A DNA stretch of 64,000 nucleotides from Paecilomyces variotii (taxonomy: Eukaryota): assembly GCA_004022145.1 (NCBI GenBank), contig RCNU01000008.1; one strand, given 5' to 3'. The position numbers were made by a program, and so were the translations under genes. Positions 13,453-64,000 of this stretch are shown piece after piece. Positions within the stretch are counted from its first letter, which is position 1. The number at the start of each line of letters is the position of its first letter. Below the pieces are notes generated by a model. It searched no databases. It was not told the DNA's origin and worked only from the letters and a program-made list of their open reading frames with translations.

Positions 13453-13488
<36 letters not shown>
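13453..13488. repeat. (GA)n microsatellite, ~18 units
   Basis: Read directly from the sequence. Confidence 0.95.
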
Positions 13489-13490
<2 letters not shown>

Positions 13491-14325
13491 CTGGTGGAAT
13501 TCAACGGCAGGTTTTCTCTCGTTCTTCTCTCGTTCTTCTCGTTATCGATATAAGTCTAACGATCAGCTTCATCGCAGCGCAGAACCCCCCAGGACTCGCC
13601 CTCGACAGAAAAGAAAAGACCAGACCAGTCCTGTTACTTCTGTATCACCTCCTGTGCATCCATTTCCCCATCGTTTTCCCCATCTAAGCCTCCCACTTGC
13701 GCAGGTCGTGCTTTAGACTCACTTTAGCCTCGATTCTCGCATACCAGACGCTTCACCGCCGGGCAACCAGATTCCTTGCCTTATCCCGGTTGCTGCTTCT
13801 TCTACTCTCTCTCTCTCCCTCTCTTCTGCTTCTTCGTTGCTCTGGGTCATGGTGGTGCTGGTGCTTCCTTCAGTCGTTCCCTTGTTCGTTTCGAAAGTCC
13901 TGTCTTTCACGTCCCTCGTTTAACTTATCTGATGACCCTCGTTTAGTCAGAAAAGGCCTTCATGATGTCCTCATAGTTTCAATTGACGCTCTCTTCATTG
14001 TTCACGCTCCTTTCCGGCTCCTCCAGAGTCCGCATTCACGACCAACTCGACGCATTCTTTGTCTATCCCAAAACAGTCATTCGTTTACTTATTACCCCCT
14101 CATTGTGGGCGCCATTGCCATTGCTATTGACATTGTTATTGTTCTACTCCATTCGAACGCTCTCGAGGCCCAATTGCACCCGTATTTGCATTCTTTATTG
14201 ATCTCACGGACCCTTTCTTGACCCGACAGTACGGCATACTTGCTACAGCATTGATATCGAATCTTTGCTGTCGTTTGTGATTCTATATATATTACGATTG
14301 TTTGATAATGCGATAATATCCAACT

Positions 14326-51200: not shown

Positions 51201-52336
51201 CACCAAGTTAACTTTCGATTAAGAGCCTCAGCACGAGCCCTTGCGGGTAACTATTAACTAACAACAGTTACACTTGAAGCTGCCTCCGTTGAATTCTGTT
51301 TTCAGTGGGGGGTTTTTTATCGGTGGGTTTGCTCCGCTTTAGTAGTATCATGTATGTAACTATAGCGTCGGGACTCCGGGTTTGTGTACTTCCTAACTCC
51401 CCGTATCATTACTACTATCCACGAGCACGAAAAGTTTAGAGTAGATAGATACCTTTCTAACTATTCACAACTATTAGTTAACTACTACTGTAACAGCTTC
51501 AATAATACTACGGATATTGGTTATTGTGGCGTCTTGCACTGTTCCGGCGATATTGCTTGATATGGATCTTTGGTACAATGGTATTTCATACGGTGATTGA
51601 TTGATTGATACCGGCAATGGTCGAGATGGGGAGCTCCGTGGTTTCTTTTTTTGTCTTCGATAGCGAGGTTTCAAGTTATGTGGGATGCTAAGCATAACGT
51701 TGAGGGGGAAAATGATGGGCGCTATGACGGCGGAGGTGGCTAACCTACGACATACCTAGTCTACGAGGCACAATAAAGGGGGGTAAAATTGAGGAAGAGA
51801 AAGATTGGTATGGGAAGGAACGCTTGCGCATTCGTTCTATTGTTGTTGGTTGTTCTTGTTCAATAATGTGGCCGTCTCTCCGTACGTACTCATACATGTA
51901 GCTTTCAAATGCTGATCCGGCAACTTCGGGGATGCAGCTTGTTCCAAACAAAAAAAAAAAAGGAAAACAAGACATACACATAGAATAATAACAAAACATG
52001 GAAGAAAGGAAGAATTCCTCGAAACAAAAAGGTATATCGTGAGACCGAAAAAAATGTAATAATAATAACAAACTGCTCCTGAACCGACAAGTTTCCGCGG
52101 AAATGATTTCCGAAACCGGGGGTATTTGTCCTTTTTATGAAACCGATTCTCTCAGAAAAAAAAAACTCAAAACCATGACTTTTGCGCCTGTGACCTCCTT
52201 CCCGGAAATGTGAAATATGGAGAGAATTCCCCATAAAAAAAAGCCTATGTACAGCTAGTGCAGTGCTAGCGTTCGTTCGAAGTGAAATGATATCGAAGTC
52301 GACTTTTTTTGCCCGTGAACCAGCAGACGGTTGACT

Positions 52337-53417
52337 TCATACCATAGCTGTAGGCATTGGACGGCCACTGTGGCATCCTCTTTCGTGACGCTTCATATTG
52401 CTGCGCACGCTGAATGCTTTGCCGCAACCAACGTGAGTGCAGCGGAACGGCTTCTCTCCAGTGTGGCTGTGAGAGTGGATTCGCAGACTGGATGGTCGTG
52501 AGAACGCCTTGTGGCACGTTCTGCAGATGTATCGGTCATGGTTCTGGGGATACGGATCGGAGCTTGATGGTGGGAAGTAGTGATGGTGCTGCCATGCTGG
52601 TGTCACTGGCGAGATCATTTGAGGATGCGTTGAAGAAACCATAGGAGTGACATAGTTCTGGCCATTGTAGTTGCTGGGTGGAGGCGGTCTCTGGTAATAG
52701 GCCGCAGCTGGTGGTACCTCCACGGGCGAACTATACGAACTGTTGCTAGGAGCCGGAGAAGCGTACGGCTGAGCTGAATACCGCGACTGAGATTCCTGAG
52801 AGATCGATCCCCGCTCCGTCGGACTTGGTAGCGTGACATAGGGCTGGTGCCGTTGCTGATATGTCTCAGAAGCACTGGCAGGGCTACCGGCTCTGGCATT
52901 CGAGGGTGTGAACTGCGAACACGTCGACGAAGATGGAGAGTGACCGGTGCTGTGGAATCCAGAGTCCGGACGCAATGGTGGAGTAGGAGGCATGGCCACC
53001 TTCGAGGCATTCCCCGCAATGTGATCAGCTGCGTGGGAGTATGCCCGTTCCCTCTGGAAAGGATTGTCTTGTCTTTGGCGTTCTATAGGATATGGGTTAG
53101 CAAGATAAAAAAAAAGGCTATCTTCCGGAGCCAAAAGTGTAAATCATACTTGCTGCAGGAATTGAGGACCTGTCAGCTCCCTCAAGGAGACTGGAGATAG
53201 ACGGGAGAGAGCATTTTCTCTGGTCCTCGACTGGAGGGGAGAGAGGAGGCTGCGGAGAGCGAGAAACATAGCTCGCGGTCGACGAGGGGAAGTATGAATC
53301 GGAGACTGATCCTTCCCGGTATTGATCGTATGTTCTGACCTGAGAGGTCGAATGACGGTGTGATGAGACTCTAGCAGAGTCGTTCACGTCCCTCGTAACC
53401 AAATTTGCCAGATCCAT
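52337..53417 (-). CDS. mtfA: C2H2 zinc-finger transcription factor MtfA, 2 exons
   Basis: MDLANL...[18 protein letters not shown], intron ~53148-53084, then KRQR...; [54 protein letters not shown]. Confidence 0.88.
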
Positions 53418-56400
53418 GATGGTTCAACTGCAAGCCGCTGGAAAGGATGCTGGATTGATGCGTGAGTAGAGAGAAGGAGGACGGGCTCGGCTCTACTGAA
53501 TGTGTCCGAACAGGTATATCGGAGGAGATTGAGATAAGATGATATCACGGATTTGGCAGAGCATGGAAGAAGGGGGATCACGTTTAGTTATGAGGCAGGA
53601 CCAACAGTCGAGAATACTACTTTGAGGCACGTTGATATGGGGCCGTGAGCGGGAGAAGCCGACATGCACAGGGCACATGAGGTCGACCAGGTAAGATTAT
53701 TATTAGTCTCGGCGCGGGAAGAGCCAAAGCGTTTCGATTCGCTTCGACAGTCATAATGCATCCAAGGCCCCGGTACGAAAGCTTAAAGTGATAACCGGGG
53801 CGATTCAGAAGGATGCGGATCGTTAACCAGGCAGTTCAAGAAGTGTTAAAGGCCGTGGCGCACCCTGTCGACCTGAGGCGGTTAGAACGTGGGCCTCCAC
53901 CCCCCTTACTAGCTGTCTCGTGGTAAAAGAGGCTCAAGGTCCTGCAGTTACCGTGGTGGTTTCGCTGTGACAAGATCGTCACTGCCAATCAGCCACCTTG
54001 ACGTTCGTATTACCGCTTAAATGAGAGTTCCGGAGCCACGTATTGACTGTATCATTAGTGCAGATCCACCGCCGGCGATGGCATACCCTTTAGTCTAGCC
54101 TCTGGGACGGGATTCAGCGTTATGGTCCATGGGTCGGCGGTTCCCCATTCTTGACCTTTCGTCCTAGAAGTCGATCTCGGCCAGTGGAGAAGACGGGCCT
54201 ACCTGTCACAACGATCCTTGCCCCGTAAACGGCTGATCACTGCGGCAGGATCATAGCGATGAACTGATCTGATGTCCGGCAGCGCGCAGATCGCCATCGG
54301 TGATCCTGGTTGGCTGCCTGACCAGGCTTTTCTTTCCGAAGATGCCAGAGACGTCGGGCTTGGAAGCCAGGTTCAGGCTTGATGCAATTTCCTTACCCCC
54401 ATCCAAGAGACCCTGGGCCAAGTGACACGCGTTGTCCCTTGAATCATTCCCAAGTAAGATCCCACGCCCGAGGTTTCGGGAACAGGTGTGAACAAGAACA
54501 ACATGAGCATGACCAGCGACACAGCGCGCGAAGCGGTCTTTGCCGATAGTCAAAGCTACCAGGAAGGGAATCTTTGAACGATCACGTTCAAGAGAGGGGT
54601 CTGTGCTGGGAGATTCAAAGTGTGGAGGCTCCGAGGCTGGAACCGGAGTTTATCGTGATATTATCAACCAATCCATGGATGCCGGTGACAGAATACGAAC
54701 CCGGGGTGTGCAGTTTTCACCAGTCTGCCGGTTGCCCGGTCCATTCCGCGCCGTAATAATAACACTGCAGACGGACGTTGTCCAAATGTCCCCTGAAACT
54801 CGGGCCCATCATTGGCCTAAAACCCTACGGATTCACTGATCACCAGTGCAGCAGCTTATTTGCCCTTGCTTGGCGGCTGTGAGATCTCATCCCCCTCCTT
54901 TGGCCTGGAGTAGTGATGCAAGAGGTGCGCAGTTAGATATGACATGCCGCTTCTGTTTCTTTTTCTCCTCTTTTCTTTTCTTTTCTTCTTGCCTTGACGG
55001 TCATATTATTGTACATACATATGATGCACATAGTTATCTGTATGAGCCCGAGAGTCAAGTCTCCATCTGCTTGGAATAATAGCATCTCCCTTGGGCCTTG
55101 TCTAAGCGTCCTGCCTATCTAGCTGGTATTGGCAAGACCCAACGCCCAGGAGACGGCTTGTTGCGGGTGCCGAGAATTTTTAGAGGCGGATGAAAGATAC
55201 TCCCTGATCACGAGAGATCTCCATGATCTGTTCGGCTCTTCCTGGAAGAGGGAACGGTCTGAGAGTCACGATGAACCAAGAAACCCGCCCAAGGCATGAA
55301 CTCACTGTGGTAGGGGGTCAGACGAGGCGCCGCAGCGCGCGGGTCCCGCCCAAGATAGGTAATGATGGAGACGACGGGGGATCGCCATCAATTTCCTGGA
55401 GCAAGGTCTCCTTTTTACTTTTAGACTGCCGTGCGGGCCACAAAAGAGTTTCGACAAGCGAGATGCGTTCCTGGACGTGATGGCCGGCAAGGAAGTCGGT
55501 CACGGCCGCCGTCGGCGGCTATGACCGCCAGAAATGTTTCCGATTCCAGCAACCAACGGGGATCTTCAGGCTATCTGAATGTGTGGCTTCGGCGGAGCAT
55601 CCGTAGAGCGTTAAAGGGATTTTCGACAAGCAGCGGCGGGATGATCTTCCGCAAGGAAGCGAGCGATGGCGCGGGAAGGCGTCTCGAAGAAGGTTAAGTT
55701 CCTCGTGGAAGCGAAGAGTCGCCAGGCCCATTGGCTTCTGGGATATCATTACCACCAGCAAGCCGTGTCCAGCTGCGGCCCCACGGCCCCAGAAAGCACA
55801 GGGTTGGTAAAAAGTCGCAGTGATCCGCATGTTGGCCGTCCCGAGTACTGGGGCTTGGGCATCACGATCCACGGAGACCCGCGACGGGGTTGATGATCCC
55901 TAACGATTGTGGCTGATCCTTTTCGGGACTTGGCCGAATGCTGACGATGATGGTCTTGAAGTACGGCACTCCGTGTTCCATACCATAAGAATCAGGGAGC
56001 GTCGGCACTTCATCAAGAATAGAAACCACTATTTTTTTCAGGGGTGTTTATGCAAACTGACAGTGACCATCATTATTATGATCCACCGGAGTCACTTTAT
56101 TCCTCACCACTGTGAAAAGGATATCTAGCTCGAGCGCGTAAAAATAATCACAATAAACGACAAGTACGGATAGTTCAGGAGGTCCTGTGGTTCGGACCAG
56201 CCACGAATTGCAATCGCCGCGTTCGTCTCCATTCGCACAATACAGACTCCTCTATCTTGGGTCTGTTGAGGGTCCTTCGGGTTGGTTTTAGTCTGTGTGA
56301 CGAAGCAGCTGTCAACTATATTCATCCTAAAGGGGTATTCAGAACCGCCTACCAGCGCTGGTGTTGTACATACGTATGATGCCCCGTCCCAGTTATCAGA

Positions 56401-59400
56401 TCTTCGTAGATACCGTACATTCCTACTGCCAGTCAATCAACCGACGAGGCATTAAACAGGCACCGGGTCAGCAGATGCCGATTGAAAATGAGAAATAATG
56501 GCTACTGTCAAAGTTTCGCATCGCACCCGTCGCGGCATCATACGTGTTCTGCGTATTTTTCACCTTTTTCAAGCGCGTATGATGCGGGTCGCGGGGCCCA
56601 GATGGGGAGATTGCTTAATTACGGAGGCCAGTGCGTCTTCTACTCGAGCCTCGAACGGCCTAGAGAAAGATAAACTTGACACGGCTGCAAATGATGTGCG
56701 GTGATCGTCAACCATTTCAAACGTCCAAGTTGCTTGATATCACCGTTGCATACTTCTGTTGGCATGAACTCAAGAACGGACTTTGACCGAGAGATGTACT
56801 CAAGTCGAACGCGTAGACAGTGCTGCACATTTTTAGTATCTATCTACTACTTCGACCTGTTAGCTGTGCGGAAGCTTTGAGGAAACATGGTCGGCATCCC
56901 TCTTTCACCTGTACCCGGAATTCTTGTGGCAGGCTTCCTTGTTTCATCCCCCGTGAGCGTCTTCGTATTTTGTGAAGATCTGTAGTGATGAGGTAGTGGT
57001 CTACCCAACCGATGATGATTTCCTGCTGCTCTTTTGTCTCGGCTAATTGTTGCTGGCAACATTGTTATCCAGTGAGACGGAATCGTTCTGTTGTAGGCCA
57101 GCTCTTCCTGGCTTTCCTGGCTCTTCCTATGGATGATAGAACATGGCCGCTGGCTCGGACACCCGAATCGAGAAAAAAAATGGAGAGTTGGACAATCTCG
57201 ATGTCGGCGACGTCAGACCGAGGCGGCCTCTAAACCTCGTACGGCGTTAGTTTGGACTCCTGGAGGGCCAACCCCCTGAAGCTACAGGCGATCCCGCAGC
57301 AGCGTAGGGAGGTTGGGGCTGGGGCTCTCGTCCAGTCCGTCTCTCATTATTTGCGGTATAAGGTTTCAAGTCGTCCTAACTGTCTTGTGTCTTGATTCCA
57401 ATCAAGACAAGACAAAACGCGTTCTGGGCTCACTGCGCCTCACGTGGCGGTTTGTTGTTCGATTCAAATCATTCCTTCTTGGGAACCAAAGCCGATGCAT
57501 CTCTGCGCCTCTTCCTGATCCATCACCATTCACTGTCCTGTCTCCTAGCGGAATCCATAATTTCCCAATAATTGATTCCTCGAACCTCAATAGTACGGCG
57601 TTTAGCATCGGACATAAACCACGGATATGAGCATCTTGGATGACGGCGTGATGTCCGATTTCAGACCCAAGATATAGATAGATATGAGAGAGCTGAGATG
57701 CAGGCACTGTACCTGTCTGATTGCTGACCTCCTTCTCAGCTTCATTTTTGTGAGAAACCTGTGTTTAACTAGTCAGTCCACTTCGGCATCCCTACGGTGT
57801 ATGAGTATGACAGAAGTACTCCAGGCATGTCCACGTATGACCAGTCATGCGGGAGTTGTCCACTATTGTCGATCATCAATCATACAATCATTGAGTATTA
57901 CTAGTTATTGTCAACAGCAAGTGGTTCGCTAGATCGGTTTCTGTCTCTCGAGTCTCGAGTCTCGACGACATGATTTCTTGCGCGAGCCTGCACCGTATCT
58001 GCCTCGCCTTCAGTAATCGGCAAGACCAGGAGGTCACATGGAAGCTGCCAGCTCGTTCCTTTTTTATTTTTGACTGTGTTCAAGCTGTCCTTTGACTCGG
58101 GGAACGGAGTTGTTTTATGCCCTCGATCCTCCAAAGGATCTCACTGGGTCCCTTAGAGCATTCCCTCTACAAAACACCTTTGCTATAGATATTCGCAACA
58201 GAAATCTAGAGAAACACACCTTCCGTTCTGGGAATGGTGAGTGCGCACTCTGAACAAAGTGCCCGGGGCCTTATCGGGAATATCTCATCATGCAGTGAAT
58301 TTGGACATGCTCTCTGATCCTGCTGTTCTGCACACAAGCAAGCAAAGGCTGAATACGATACGAACTTCTAAGATTCGGTAGTATTCATTCAGAACCGCTT
58401 AGAGCTGTGACACTGAGGATCGTGGTAAGCAGCCACCAATCCAAGTGTGCGCGACTTGACATTCGGTCCAACCCAACAAGCACAAACATTGCTAAGACTT
58501 GAGCTGTTGCTATCCATTAGCATGTTTGAATTAATGCACAGGATGCCTTTTGGAATCACCAACAACGACGAGACAATAGCTTCGGATCTCCCGAGACGCG
58601 CGTTCTTCAGCTGATTCCCTGGATCTAGAAGCTCGAGACGATGTTCGAATTGATATGGCATCCTACTGATAATCTCAGATCTACCAGTATACGTAAGGAA
58701 GCCGCGTGTTGCAGTTTGAGGACGACCGTGCCTCCGACCTGTTGACCGTCTTGCTGGAGATCGACGGTCGAGGTACCGTGCATTCCGCTTCTGCAGCGTA
58801 CATCAATGCCCATCACCTGGGAATAATAACAATATCTTCCACGCTTGACGGTTAAACTCTTCGATTCCATGTAACGGTGTAACGTTAGAGTGTACCCCTA
58901 CAGCGTGGTAGGTAATAATCTGAAACCCTCCCGGGTCTAGGGAAAGGGACGGCACCGAGCATCCACAGTTCAAAGAACTTACTGCAATATTGTGATTTCC
59001 ACAGACAAATGCTAGCCACTTTGTATGTACTGTACAATACAATAGACCAATCACTTTTTTTTTTATCGATGATGGCATTTCTCAGTCCTTGAGAGCAGTA
59101 CACCGTGCACAGACCTGAGAAACAAGACCACGGCACGGGTCAGCTGACGATCCTTATACTTGTTCATCTTTCTTGTACGGAGTATGGAGTATTATTAATA
59201 ATTTATTACTCTAACTACCGATCTTCGTCTTGATCCGCGAGTCTCTGGTAGTCTGATAATAATAATAATAGGAAGGTGTGAGGCTTTTTCCCCGCTGTAT
59301 CAAGCGCGCGAATATAGTAAACCTAGTGGGTGTTCTAACTTCTGCACCTTCAAATGCGCACGGTTCTCTGTATCTCAACCTTCCTCTTGCCCATCTCCAT

Positions 59401-59859
59401 ATCTAATTATTATCTATTAACCGCGTGGTCTGTGCTAGAAGGGCCGCAGCCCACCTTCATCCCTTCAACTTACCCCAGTCTGTGCTCCCATTTCGTGGCG
59501 TAGGAACACCGGGCATCAGACCTGTCTTGGTTAGATTCACGCACATTCGCGGTAAGCAGAACAAAGGCACTTGCCGACGACTGTGACACCTGCGCGACAA
59601 AGTCGATATGGCTTTCTTTGATACCGAAGACCAGATCTTATTTACCCTCAAAACTCTAATCGGTAGCATACAGTAAGATGCAGGAAAGAGGTATCTTTAC
59701 GAGAGATATGGCCTATCTACAGTATAGTGATGGGACTAGTGGTAGAGGTAACTAACGACCGACCGACAAGTCATAGGTGACAAAAATGAGCAAGAGATGA
59801 TAGAGTTGGGACACGAAGAGCTCCCATTCGCTTTTTCATTCATTGCATTCCCGAACGCA

Positions 59860-60490
59860 CGTTTAGAAGTCGGTTGTGTACCCGGTGTTCGCGCGAAGTT
59901 CATGACCGAGTTACGGGACTACTGCTGCTGACTCCTGAGACGGCTTAACGGTGGAGCATCTCTGCCTCTTTTGAATATGGCTGCGACAGGGCCTCCATCT
60001 GTCACAGAAGCGCAGGACTGTGCTCAGTAGTAGTAGTAAGCCACAATCGTTCAGTACCGCGAGTCGCTTGCTTGACTCTTGACTGAATGCTCTGCTCTAG
60101 ATCTCGGGTGCTAAGTTAATATCGCGGCATCAATTCTGGGATGGGGGGCTTGTTTGCCGATCCTCATTCGGTGGTCATCTTCCTGCTTTTCCGTCATAGA
60201 GATCTCACGGAGAACAATGCTTGCTTGCTCGATGCTGAATCACATCATCCCGCTTGGCTTTTCCGCTCCCTAGATAACTAGATAGACCCTGGGTGGGCGG
60301 GAAGGTAATCTCCAGCAGGGCTTTGGATTCCCATGCAGTGACTGCTAGTTATAGGGGTCTCAGATCGCCATCCAGCATCCGGTCTCTTGGGTGCCACCGT
60401 CTGTGACTAGCAGCCAGGATCACTGCAGGTGCAGCCGACAGCCTCGAGGCTCATGACGTCTTGTGTTGACAACTGGCCCAGCCCTGCTAG
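59860..60490 (+). ncRNA. Candidate structured non-coding RNA domain (unknown family)
   Basis: Adjacent 14-22 bp stems with multiple G-U pairs on the + strand, and no credible ORF; see findings. Confidence 0.4.
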
Positions 60491-62905
60491 TCGTTTCATC
60501 TGCCTGCTCAACCTTCCCCAGTCCCATGCCATGCCGGCCGTGCTATAACGATCAATCAGCAAGAAGCCACCAAAAAAGGGATCTTAAGATTGCAGCCAGA
60601 GTTCCCCAGAACCGGTGGGAATTTAGCGGCAACGGCATAAAACCTGCTCTTTGATAATAATGCCTCTTCTTCCTAAACCCTTTTCGAGAGCCTTCAGACC
60701 GCTCCAATGCGGGTGAAACAATAACATACATTCGGTCAGACCAAGACTCCGGCCGCCGCCCTCCCGCACCGCGGCGTGTCAACTTTCAAGGGACGATCGT
60801 CTTTCCCTTTGACCAATAAAGATATACTCGCGAATTAATAGAGTTTCCAGTTACTCTTTCGACCCGCGAGACTAAACCGTTGGTAGAAGGCGCAGCCTAT
60901 TCGTGGATGATTGACGACGGACCGCACGATCGACTGGAATGAGTGGGAAGCATCCAGACGATCTCCATGATATCTCACGTGAGAGACATGGAAAGATACA
61001 GAGACCAAAACCCAGTAAGAGCAGTAAGCGTGTTTCGCCAGCTGCAAGTCATTTGCATGTAAGACGGGGGGGGACGGGGTCGAATCGACCAGCCGTCTCC
61101 ATGGGGTAAAAAATGATCGCTTCAACCCGACAACCCTTTCTGTTCCCTGGCCAGTGATCTCACCCCGAAGAGGATAATCGTCCGTGAGTTCGAGTAACCC
61201 TCGCAGAATGAGAATGGGCAAATGTGTTTGGGACTCGCATTAACAGACACGTTGGTGCAGATCCTGCCTCCGATGCCTTTGTTTCCAACATGGACTATAG
61301 ATACATACAATCAGGACTGCAGAGTAAAATCGCGCGGCAGACATCCAGAAAGAAAAAGAAGGGTAAACTACCAGGGTCTTCTCCACGCGCATGGTATTGT
61401 CGGAAATTCCGCACAACGCAAACAAGGTCAATTTAGTAGCAAGAGATCCCTGTAACACCCAAAAAAGGTAGTGAGCACAGTATTACGCTCTTAAAGAATA
61501 TCAGAGTTTCAGCATGTTGTCACCATTCTTATCAATCTAGGGAATAACCTTGTACGGAAGAATCAGAGACACCTTAACCTGGCTTACTCAACCACTACGA
61601 AAGGTCAACAATAATATGCTCAGCGACGTATTCGCATTGATTGAAACATAGTCTCAGCTCGGTCGAATTCAACTAAGTATCGAGTAAAGAATTTGTCTCA
61701 TGCATATCCCAACAATACCATCACTGCCTCACGCCGTACAGCGCTATTCCCACCCCATAGATAGTTACCAGGGGCGAAACTAAGGGCGGCCGAGGACCGT
61801 TGGAAGAGTACTACAGCTTCACCTATCACCGGGTTAACGTATCGAACCGAGACAGGGGTCCTGAAAGAAAATGGCTTTCGGCATATGTGCTCGGAGTTAT
61901 CCTTTCCCCCTTTAATCGGAAAGTATATGGTACAACTATTTCCTCAAAAGTTGGTCATGGTATTCACCTCATTGCTTGCATCATCTCATCTCTTTCTCGT
62001 TCTGAGACGACCATCCCGTCTTTTTATCTAATGCTCGGTGTTAGTGCCCTATTTGGGAATAACCTTACTATATAAAGAACCAACTGCATAATAATTAAAT
62101 TATTATTCTTGGAGTGGAGAATGCAAGTGAAGTAAATAACTGCGCGCATACTTCTAGAGGACAGACTATGTAGTTGGGAAGTAAACAATAACCACCGCAG
62201 TTCTCGATATAGGGAAACTGGATATGTTCGACATATCTATTCGAGGGAAGACTTGAAATGTAACTACTACCTGGGAGTTTTTATCATACACAAAATATCG
62301 CCCTCTTAAACGCCGTTTCCATTACTTGTCGGCGTTGTGGTTTATGGATACATGGATAGTGTGTAAGTATATATTTTGATGGGAAGAGTCTTCCACATAT
62401 TTGCCACATCCATGTCCGCACCATTTTCTTCTCAAATCTCAGTAATTCATGCACTTGCCAGATTAGCGCCCCTGTTAATCGTTTCTTCTATTAGACAATG
62501 ACATTAAGTGATGCTCAGATATCCTTGGACTTTGGGATTCCTTGGGCTCTGGTTCTTGAATAAAATCTCATTTTTCTATAAACAATTTGTGGGTATCCTG
62601 TACTCTGTATGTGCTGGAGCTATCTGCCTGTGATCTAACGTTGAAAAAAAGAAAAGATAACAGCGATGAGATCAGCCAATGGCTGAATGTAATTATAGGG
62701 GGGGTTGAATATTCTTTCTCCTGCAGAAGTCTCTTGCTCATCTAGAAAGCATGATGCCAGTTTCAGACGCTGATGATTGTTACGTTACGCCTTCATGGCG
62801 CGACGGCCGAGGGATGGCTATTGTTGCTGTCCCGTGTTAGTCCCCATCACATCGGCTTCGAAATATAATAATAGCATTTCGCTAGATCTCTCGATGGGTC
62901 TTGTC

Positions 62906-64000
62906 TTAGACTGGCGAAGTTGACAGCAGAGCATCAGTCTGATGCGACGGACGCTCGTCCTCGACAACCTCAGGTCGCTCTTCCGCTATTCCAGGTAGAT
63001 CGGCCTCCGATCTCCTGACAAAATGACTCGGGGATGCTTCTCGGCTTCGCACTTCGTCTGTCTCGTAGTAAGAATCATCCTCTTCGACATCGTCCAAGAC
63101 ACTTCTCGACCGCCTCATGAAGCCTGGCTCCGGCGACACGATCCTGGGACTAGTAGTACGGCTCGGTCCTCTGGACGAAGTCGACACCGTATCTGGGAGT
63201 GGTGTTCCTCTATCGCTCGACCTTCCACGACATGATGCACTGCGGCCCGTAGGTTGACTGTGACTATGCCTGCTGTCGCTCCAACCCTCCCCAGTTCGAT
63301 TATCTTCTGTCCACAGCTCAAATTCGCGACTGCTCCAGCTTGCGCGCGACGGTCGTGCACCGTATGGCAAACTAGAGTAGCTGACCTGAGACCGGAGCGA
63401 CATGGACCGCCTATGATTTCTCGATGGAACGCGTTGATCATCCTCAGACATAGATGCATGAGACATATCCAGACTCTGCTTTTGTACAATATTGTCCTCG
63501 TCCTCATCCTCGATCTTAGGAACACGGTGCACGATACCCACGTTAAATGAGGGTTCTTTTGGACCTTCATCGACTGGTGGAGGTGGCGGCGGTGGTGGAG
63601 GTAGATCTGCAGCTGCTTTCTCGACATGGTTAAGATATTTTGTCCGCAACGGCAGCCAGCTTCGTGGTCTGAATTGTTCCTTTTCCTTGTAGCGTGTAAC
63701 GGATATGTAGCTTGAGATAGCTCCCATGACGATGGCGATAAGGAGAAAGATTGTCAGCACCCCCTGAATGACAATGATGACAATACCAATGACGGTGGCG
63801 ATGATGCGGCTAATATTGAATCGAGGATCAAATGCTGAGGATAGGGCCACTGTAGAGACCTTGCTGAATCCAAGGAAGTACACCATCATCGCATTGAGAC
63901 GAATTGCCTCGAAGGGTCTCATCCAGATCATAGCGATGAGAGCAATGAACTCGACCGCAAGGTTCCCAAAGACCTGAGTCATGGCGTGGCCAGCAGCTGC
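62906..64000 (-). CDS. C-terminal part of a TRP-like (Flc/Pkd2 family) membrane channel; 5' part outside the window
   Basis: TM block ...WMRPFEAIRLNAMMVYFLGFSKVSTVALSSAFDPRFNISRIIATVIGIVIIVIQGVL..., followed by a disordered cytosolic tail. Confidence 0.8.
   Translation of the reverse strand, partial: AAAGHAMTQVFGNLAVEFIALIAMIWMRPFEAIRLNAMMVYFLGFSKVSTVALSSAFDPRFNISRIIATVIGIVIIVIQGVLTIFLLIAIVMGAISSYISVTRYKEKEQFRPRSWLPLRTKYLNHVEKAAADLPPPPPPPPPVDEGPKEPSFNVGIVHRVPKIEDEDEDNIVQKQSLDMSHASMSEDDQRVPSRNHRRSMSLRSQVSYSSLPYGARPSRASWSSREFELWTEDNRTGEGWSDSRHSHSQPTGRSASCRGRSSDRGTPLPDTVSTSSRGPSRTTSPRIVSPEPGFMRRSRSVLDDVEEDDSYYETDEVRSREASPSHFVRRSEADLPGIAEERPEVVEDERPSHQTDALLSTSPV

Follow-up and report, generated by a model that had tools for sequence, protein, structure and literature searches.

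The 631 nt at positions 59860 to 60490 of the window, by which we mean the whole 64-kb stretch of DNA that was analyzed, are probably an ordinary transcribed non-coding spacer with chance hairpins, lying in a long regulatory region with conserved islands. The original prediction had read these bases as a dense cluster of long hairpins and thus as a candidate undescribed structured non-coding RNA (ncRNA). Its non-coding and transcribed character held up, the latter on unstranded contigs from two studies, but its structured character did not, the folding z-scores being at chance level and the stem of one hairpin, named e below, being lost in a related species, two outcomes that the prediction itself had named as refuting it. 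The six hairpins would be the local structures that any sequence of such length and composition forms. They would have been picked by eye as the densest patch in 64 kb and would not be the working parts of an RNA. A conserved block of 62 nt within the stretch, on the other hand, would owe its effect to its sequence and would most likely be a cis-regulatory element that a protein binds, serving either the regulatory region or a local non-coding transcript. The transcription and the one conserved block are real but ordinary.

A non-coding spacer in a long region without genes

The stretch is a non-coding spacer inside a gap of ~9.5 kb that holds no long open reading frame (ORF) and separates a C2H2 zinc-finger gene from a TRP-channel-like gene, both on the minus strand. 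The C2H2 gene, the putative mtfA (52337..53423), was delimited from its ORFs as two exons and matched Pfam zf-C2H2 (9.7e-08); its intron, 53083-53149, appeared as a CT..AC joint in an RNA contig of the public run X18. Only the 3′ part of the TRP-channel-like gene (62906..64000) lies in the window, where its ORF matched Pfam PF06011 (TRP, 3.9e-27). The stretch had been placed upstream of mtfA. It does lie on that side of the gene, but 6.4 to 7.1 kb separate it from the C2H2 start codon, so that it is not immediately upstream and the word holds only loosely. The region upstream of the C2H2 gene was found to be without long ORFs in several related loci too. A tblastn search for the TRP protein among the related loci gave a match in one alone (L010), and there it lies downstream of the C2H2 gene.

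Two reports (PMC3774644, PMC4728551) describe MtfA as a master transcription factor for morphogenesis and secondary metabolism, with work in A. nidulans and A. flavus. The titles and abstract openings of the literature on mtfA, Aspergillus and lncRNA contained nothing on the locus.

Coding potential and known families were both searched for. There was no ATG-initiated ORF above 77 aa in 59200-61500, none of the 16 stop-to-stop ORFs (0/16) matched Pfam at cut-off, and the longest minus-strand ORF has lost 1 nt, at 59650, in a variant strain. The covariance models of Rfam 15 gave no match at E <= 1 on either strand of 57000-64000 and none at gathering score in the full 64-kb window.

We also considered whether the stretch is a MITE or another dispersed repeat, since long imperfect inverted repeats in non-coding DNA are what MITEs look like. 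Unlike MITEs, it occurs only once in the window and lacks terminal inverted repeats: neither a repeat family nor flanking or terminal inverted repeats were found in 59000-61500, and the conserved block at 60361-60422 occurs once in the 64 kb. The even depth of a single 51.6-kb contig that crosses the stretch in a DNA run also speaks against an element with several copies. Within the window and this run, the MITE candidate was therefore not supported.

The hairpins are correctly described

As a description, the six stems of the original prediction, a to f, were accurate. A direct sequence check found all 12 arm sequences at their positions, and ViennaRNA re-formed every one of the stems on the plus strand. 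Hairpin a (59870..59909) has a 9-bp stem and a small inner stem, with 14 pairs in total. Hairpin b (59918..60037) has an outer stem of 13 to 14 bp enclosing small inner stems; this outer stem consists of ACT/GCT repeats opposite AGT trinucleotide repeats, as anticipated by the caveat that stem b is partly low-complexity. Hairpin c (60048..60089) forms 16 pairs in ViennaRNA, and hairpin d (60257..60306) forms 17 pairs with one bulge and 5 G-U pairs, just as predicted. Hairpin e (60334..60427) combines an 8-bp and a 14-bp stem around a 6-nt bulge and has 36 pairs in total; at 94 nt and -41 kcal/mol, it is a stable hairpin of precursor size, and the remark that it is as large as a pre-milRNA, with a stem of 22 bp, was right. 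Stem f (60314..60488), a perfect 9-bp helix around e, creates a multi-branch domain, and when the full 59860-60490 stretch is folded to minimum energy, it does close the e domain. By simple arithmetic, one expects ~0.5 perfect 9-mer inverted repeats, with arms within 200 nt, in 631 nt of sequence.

Folding stability is at the level of shuffled controls

The comparison with dinucleotide shuffles on both strands, proposed together with the prediction, went against it. On the plus strand, the full 631 nt folded at -227.6 kcal/mol, compared with a shuffle mean of -221.7 kcal/mol (z -0.72), and 7 of the 20 dinucleotide shuffles were as stable or more so; on the minus strand, z was +1.00. When pairing was limited to spans of <=150 nt, so that local hairpins alone were counted, z was -1.6 on the plus strand, with 6 of 100 shuffles equaling the real sequence (nominal p ~0.06), and +0.77 on the minus strand. 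The folding energy of the stretch is not clearly below that of its dinucleotide shuffles and the genomic background.

Cut out at their stems, the single hairpins scored lower. The z-scores on the plus and minus strands were -2.08 and -0.42 for hairpin a, -2.36 and -0.84 for b, -3.34 and -2.22 for c, -3.12 (by shuffles) and +0.27 for d, and -2.86 and -0.72 for e. Hairpin d had -4.18 by the RNALfold SVM score, and the e/f domain (60312-60490) had z -2.47, with 3 of 200 shuffles equal. Because the boundaries of the hairpins were picked after the stems had been seen, such values need to be set against a background.

Comparable clusters occur elsewhere in the window and in shuffled sequence

For this background, we scanned all 64 kb on both strands with RNALfold z-scores and retained non-overlapping local structures with z <= -3. 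There were 92 such structures on the plus strand and 88 on the minus strand, i.e., ~0.9 (0.91) per 631 nt per strand, and the 59860-60490 stretch contained 3 on plus and 0 on minus. The 52% of its bases that lie under structures with z <= -3 on the plus strand place it in the top 1% of 1268 overlapping bins, and its mean minimum z places it merely in the top 18%. Windows shuffled in 1-kb blocks with dinucleotides kept (n=5, one strand scanned) produced the same picture: all five had 631-nt bins holding 3 structures with z <= -3 (5 to 19 bins each), and all five had bins covered to at least 52% at that threshold (3 to 31 bins each). The strongest local structure of the window, at 13461-13541 (z -7.64), is a (GA)n run paired with a CT-rich tract, showing that top scores are driven by low complexity.

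Counting plain helices, uninterrupted and of >=12 bp with G-U allowed and a span of up to 200 nt, gave 78 in the window on the plus strand and 84 on the minus strand, with 6 and 0, respectively, in the stretch. Four of these six raw helices have one G-rich arm in common (60290-60307), and merging those with a common arm left 3 distinct helices. The G-rich 3′ arm of hairpin d pairs over 12 bp with three further CT-rich tracts nearby, so its pairing is promiscuous and of low complexity. Three distinct helices were also found at 5 other places on the plus strand and 4 on the minus strand of the same window, and 10 of 12 shuffled windows had some bin with at least 3 helices, two of them reaching 4. 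Since equal densities occur elsewhere in the window and in shuffles, a patch of this kind is to be expected when 64 kb are scanned on two strands. That the hairpins cluster beyond chance was accordingly not borne out: nine other places in the window, as well as shuffled windows, match their density.

The preference for the plus strand follows from base composition

It had been argued that G-U pairs, which become A-C on the opposite strand, favor a plus-strand RNA. All five hairpins tested on both strands (5/5) did score better on plus than on minus. However, the plus strand of the stretch has 122 A, 167 C, 173 G, and 169 U, and the bias of the hairpins arises from this excess of U (169) over A (122), by which more G-U pairs are possible. 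The shuffles show the same strand gap, with means of -221.7 (plus) and -200.1 (minus) kcal/mol differing by 21.6, like the real sequence. The argument thus reduces to base composition.

One block is conserved in a related species, but the long stem is not

Searching metagenome contigs with the C2H2 exon yielded 80 loci. An alignable spacer was present in one related species only, represented by L001, L002, and L029, whose C2H2 protein is 64% identical. The other 77 of the 80 loci had no spacer sequence detectably shared with the window; L005 and L032 are closer in the zinc-finger part, but carry 160 and 1591 nt of upstream sequence. An nhmmer search with the 4.4-kb spacer as one query found nothing, and short-word blastn gave matches. 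Against L001, L002, and L029, these matches formed six collinear blocks at 53623-54270, 54554-54657, 55616-55937, 56657-56742, 57418-57449, and 60376-60422, spanning diagonals 62983-63424. The last of the six, on diagonal 63164, is the sole one inside the stretch (82% over 49 nt, E 1e-5).

Local alignment extended this match to ~60361, defining a conserved non-coding block of ~62 nt (60361..60422) that covers the apex and the 3′ arm of hairpin e. A profile of the block, searched with nhmmer against the 80 loci, found L001, L002, and L029 only, the next best match having E 3.5. A 2-nt indel inside the block means that no reading frame is conserved, by which we ruled out a small ORF. The block is thus collinear with its neighbors, more conserved than its flanks, and without a frame, as is a conserved non-coding element. 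We also rejected a C/D-box snoRNA for the block, as inspection by eye revealed no C box on either strand and Rfam gave no match.

The stems had been expected to be kept in related species, but stem e is lost in L001, L002, and L029 though its 3′ arm is conserved, which, with one species, is a weak test. In L001, the 3′ arm is identical at 25 of 28 positions, with an 18-nt insertion, and the 5′ arm at 9 of 22, five of which are the outer TGCAG (counted in a hand re-alignment). The 5′ arm of the relative cannot pair with the block in the register of the window, and the relative instead forms another hairpin, which is in a register of its own but has a comparable TGCAG/CTGCA outer stem (z -1.65). 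The two arms of hairpin e are not conserved together, as they would be in a milRNA precursor. Where one arm is selected while the other drifts, the long stem is not the selected thing, and since the partner of the block has not been conserved, the block would not be acting as the 3′ arm of this hairpin. Hairpins a to d and stem f had no collinear similarity in the relative even at E <= 50 by blastn.

RNAalifold, given the window and L001, dropped the long stem e and retained only an inner hairpin of 8 bp with a 4-nt loop (60375..60394, plus strand), located within the conserved block. In these two sequences, 5 of its 8 pairs are unchanged, 2 are changed on one side (U-G to C-G and G-U to G-C), and 1 is changed on both sides. 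The inner hairpin could equally be a palindromic DNA site. Judging from the sequence comparison, the conserved block probably acts via its sequence, either bound by a protein as a DNA element or serving a local transcript as its promoter-proximal element.

RNA is made from the stretch and strains vary within it

Among the public runs listed, 20 of 24 contained the stretch; they come from 10 studies, and six of them are recorded as RNA. We compared the contig cover of four runs over 52000-64000, in which contigs are unstranded. Two of them, X17 and X18, are cDNA metatranscriptomes from different studies, and their cover is patchy. Neither covers, e.g., 58015-59217. An X18 contig of 1009 nt at depth 47 (T1, 59267..60275) covers hairpins a to c, and an X17 contig of 609 nt at depth 12.8 (T2, 60156..60915) covers hairpins d to f and the conserved block. 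T1 differs from the window by 14 substitutions and 33 gap letters over its 1009 nt and shows no poly(A) and no splice joint. T2 consists of 60156-60536 plus 60730-60915, and its joint 60536>60730 recurs in an X18 contig at depth 5.81; another X18 contig covers 60805-61387 at depth 7.89. The RNA contigs over the stretch carried neither a splice site nor a poly(A) mark, and no single RNA contig in X17 or X18 joins hairpins a to c to d to f. The X18 depth of T1 (47) is close to that of the TRP gene contig (43), although contig depth is a poor measure.

These X17 and X18 contigs indicate that RNA is made here. X18 also carries a correctly spliced contig of the C2H2 gene, so this library holds real RNA of the organism. 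The patchy cover, as opposed to the one spanning DNA contig, is a further sign that more than contaminating DNA is present in the RNA libraries, although holes alone prove nothing. With its 1009 nt and no coding potential, the unstranded metatranscriptome contig exceeds the 200 nt that mark an intergenic lncRNA. Run X9, which is labeled as RNA, was treated as uninformative on transcription because its 15-kb contig of even depth is DNA-like.

Strains were found to vary freely in the stretch by substitutions and indels. In X17 and X18, the 193 nt at 60537..60729 are swapped for 24 other letters. The replaced segment ends in GC..AC, identifying the change as a strain difference and not an intron, and, as it adjoins stem f, large indels are tolerated there. 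Hairpin b lacks 3 nt of its 5′ arm, at 59918, in X9, X18, and X7, i.e., in all three runs with a contig there; this is a microsatellite length polymorphism.

Alternative explanations

A plus-strand ncRNA folded into six hairpins, including the e/f multi-branch domain, and working through this structure would be undescribed, as no Rfam family matched. The stems do exist and score better on plus than on minus, structures with z <= -3 number 3 on plus against 0 on minus, and contigs from RNA libraries cover the stretch. However, its stability does not surpass that of shuffles, the density of the cluster is reproduced in shuffled windows, and stem e is gone in the relative despite the conserved 3′ arm, with a to d and f lacking similarity altogether. 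Together with the 3-nt polymorphism in stem b, the 193-nt replacement beside f, and the failure of any single contig to join a-c to d-f among contigs that are all unstranded, these results make such an RNA very unlikely in our judgment. A role of hairpin e as a milRNA precursor, with the conserved 3′ arm as the mature product, would fit its 94 nt, its 22-bp stem with z -2.86, the 19 of 22 identical positions at 60401-60422 in the relative, and the presence of the region in RNA libraries. In size, shape, and intergenic location, it resembles fungal milRNA precursors, but differs from them in having one conserved arm and a stem lost in the relative, where the conserved arm lacks a complementary counterpart and most of it is left unpaired in the predicted fold. 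As a precursor needs both arms, we give this reading hardly any credence. Moreover, of 1727 mi/milRNA loci reported from fungi, less than half are stated to satisfy basic standards (PMC9757828), so a hairpin alone carries little weight.

Other explanations concern the conserved block. Its small 8-bp hairpin together with a single-stranded motif might be a functional RNA element of an lncRNA acting in cis on the C2H2 gene. RNA contig T2 contains the block, the small hairpin persists in the relative with two pairs altered on one side and one on both, and the spacer combines collinear conserved blocks with patchy RNA cover. Two sequences, however, cannot show covariation, a DNA binding site predicts the same conservation, the block is 6.9 kb from the gene, and the RNA contigs are unstranded and do not mark transcript ends, so we consider this unlikely. 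The block might also be a promoter-proximal element of a minus-strand transcript that starts near 60275 and runs toward the C2H2 gene to ~59190. T1 has its right end at 60275 without extra letters, so that there is no poly(A) there; the block lies 90 to 150 bp beyond this end; and on the minus strand an AATAAA is found at ~59207-59212, just past the left end of T1, an end that falls in an (ATA)n microsatellite. Contig ends, however, are not transcript ends, the TATA-like AT-rich tract at 59193-59212 would equally fit a plus-strand start near 59250, and T2 overlaps the supposed start site. We therefore see this transcript as a rather improbable one. A broader proposal, which we likewise put forward as speculative and hold to be improbable, is that the 9.5-kb region is a conserved regulatory landscape transcribed to ncRNA, in which the 62-nt block with the small hairpin would be the functional core acting in cis on the regulator of development and secondary metabolism and the species-specific hairpins would be scaffold only.

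Relation to known systems

Intergenic lncRNAs are known from long regions upstream of developmental regulators in fungi, with ICR1/PWR1 at FLO11, IRT1 at IME1, and SRG1 at SER3 as examples from S. cerevisiae. The transcribed spacer described here is similar to these yeast-type lncRNAs in being unspliced and non-coding and in lying upstream of a regulator gene where genes are absent over an unusual length. Unlike them, it is known from unstranded contigs only and lies 6.4 to 7.1 kb from the gene start. The conserved block, for its part, is similar to the conserved non-coding elements of fungal promoters, as it is a short block among unalignable flanks and collinear with five others. It differs from typical fungal upstream elements in being much further from the gene, and it is seen in one related species.

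If the stretch is the ordinary spacer that we take it to be, the hairpin cluster is the expected yield of reading 64 kb by eye, and announcing a new structured RNA would mislead. The long gene-free upstream region, with its collinear conserved blocks and its partial presence in RNA libraries, offers concrete deletion targets for studying the control of the C2H2 gene.

Loose ends of RNA contigs

Past 60915, X17 has 20 loose letters similar to the reverse complement of 60470-60489, and after them comes an apparent library primer. The same apparent primer occurs at two other X17 contig ends. We took the loose letters for a library chimera and rejected them as a genuine joint. At 62551, a loose X18 contig end carries a T-run that suggests the poly(A) site of the TRP-channel-like gene.

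Conserved blocks and candidate transcripts upstream of the C2H2 gene

Strongly conserved non-coding blocks were found upstream of the C2H2 zinc-finger gene (called mtfA in the original prediction) at 53623-54270, 54554-54657, 55616-55937, 56657-56742, and 57418-57449, each collinear with L001, L002, and L029, which represent one related species seen three times among the metagenome loci of this gene. Identity to these loci reached 79-81% over 110-140 nt, whereas that of the C2H2 protein was only 64%. The blocks contain 1-nt indels between the window and the related loci, which argues against their being coding.

The C2H2 gene may, as a rule, be preceded by a very long stretch that is poor in genes. 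Among the 20 loci within L001-L074 for which the full 10 kb upstream was available, we searched for stop-free frames of at least 220 aa, a crude test because intron-rich genes escape detection. At many fungal loci carrying a C2H2-gene relative, 5.5-10 kb of upstream sequence lacked such a frame: L010, L047, and L067 had none across 10 kb, and in L062, L063, L065, L068, and L070 it was confined to the first 1.1 kb.

At 55038-55363, identical contig ends were observed in X17 (depth 18.2) and X18 (depth 23.8), cDNA metatranscriptome runs from two different studies, which weakly suggests a discrete RNA or exon of approximately 326 nt. Unlike these RNA-library contigs, the contig of the DNA run continues. 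GTAATG occurs at 55361, and the interval had no match in Rfam. At 54002-54059, a single X17 contig (depth 2) omits 56 nt with GT..AG ends on the plus strand. This skip would represent a spliced plus strand transcript heading away from the minus strand C2H2 gene, i.e., one divergent from, or antisense to, the 5′ leader of that gene.

Other features of the window

With an RNALfold z of -7.64, the structure at 13461-13541 outscores all other local structures in the window; it consists of a (GA)n microsatellite paired with a CT-rich tract and is a low-complexity effect. At 60537-60729, 193 nt of the window are replaced by 24 other nucleotides in the strains found in two metatranscriptomes, a sizeable presence/absence difference among close strains that adjoins the hairpin cluster.
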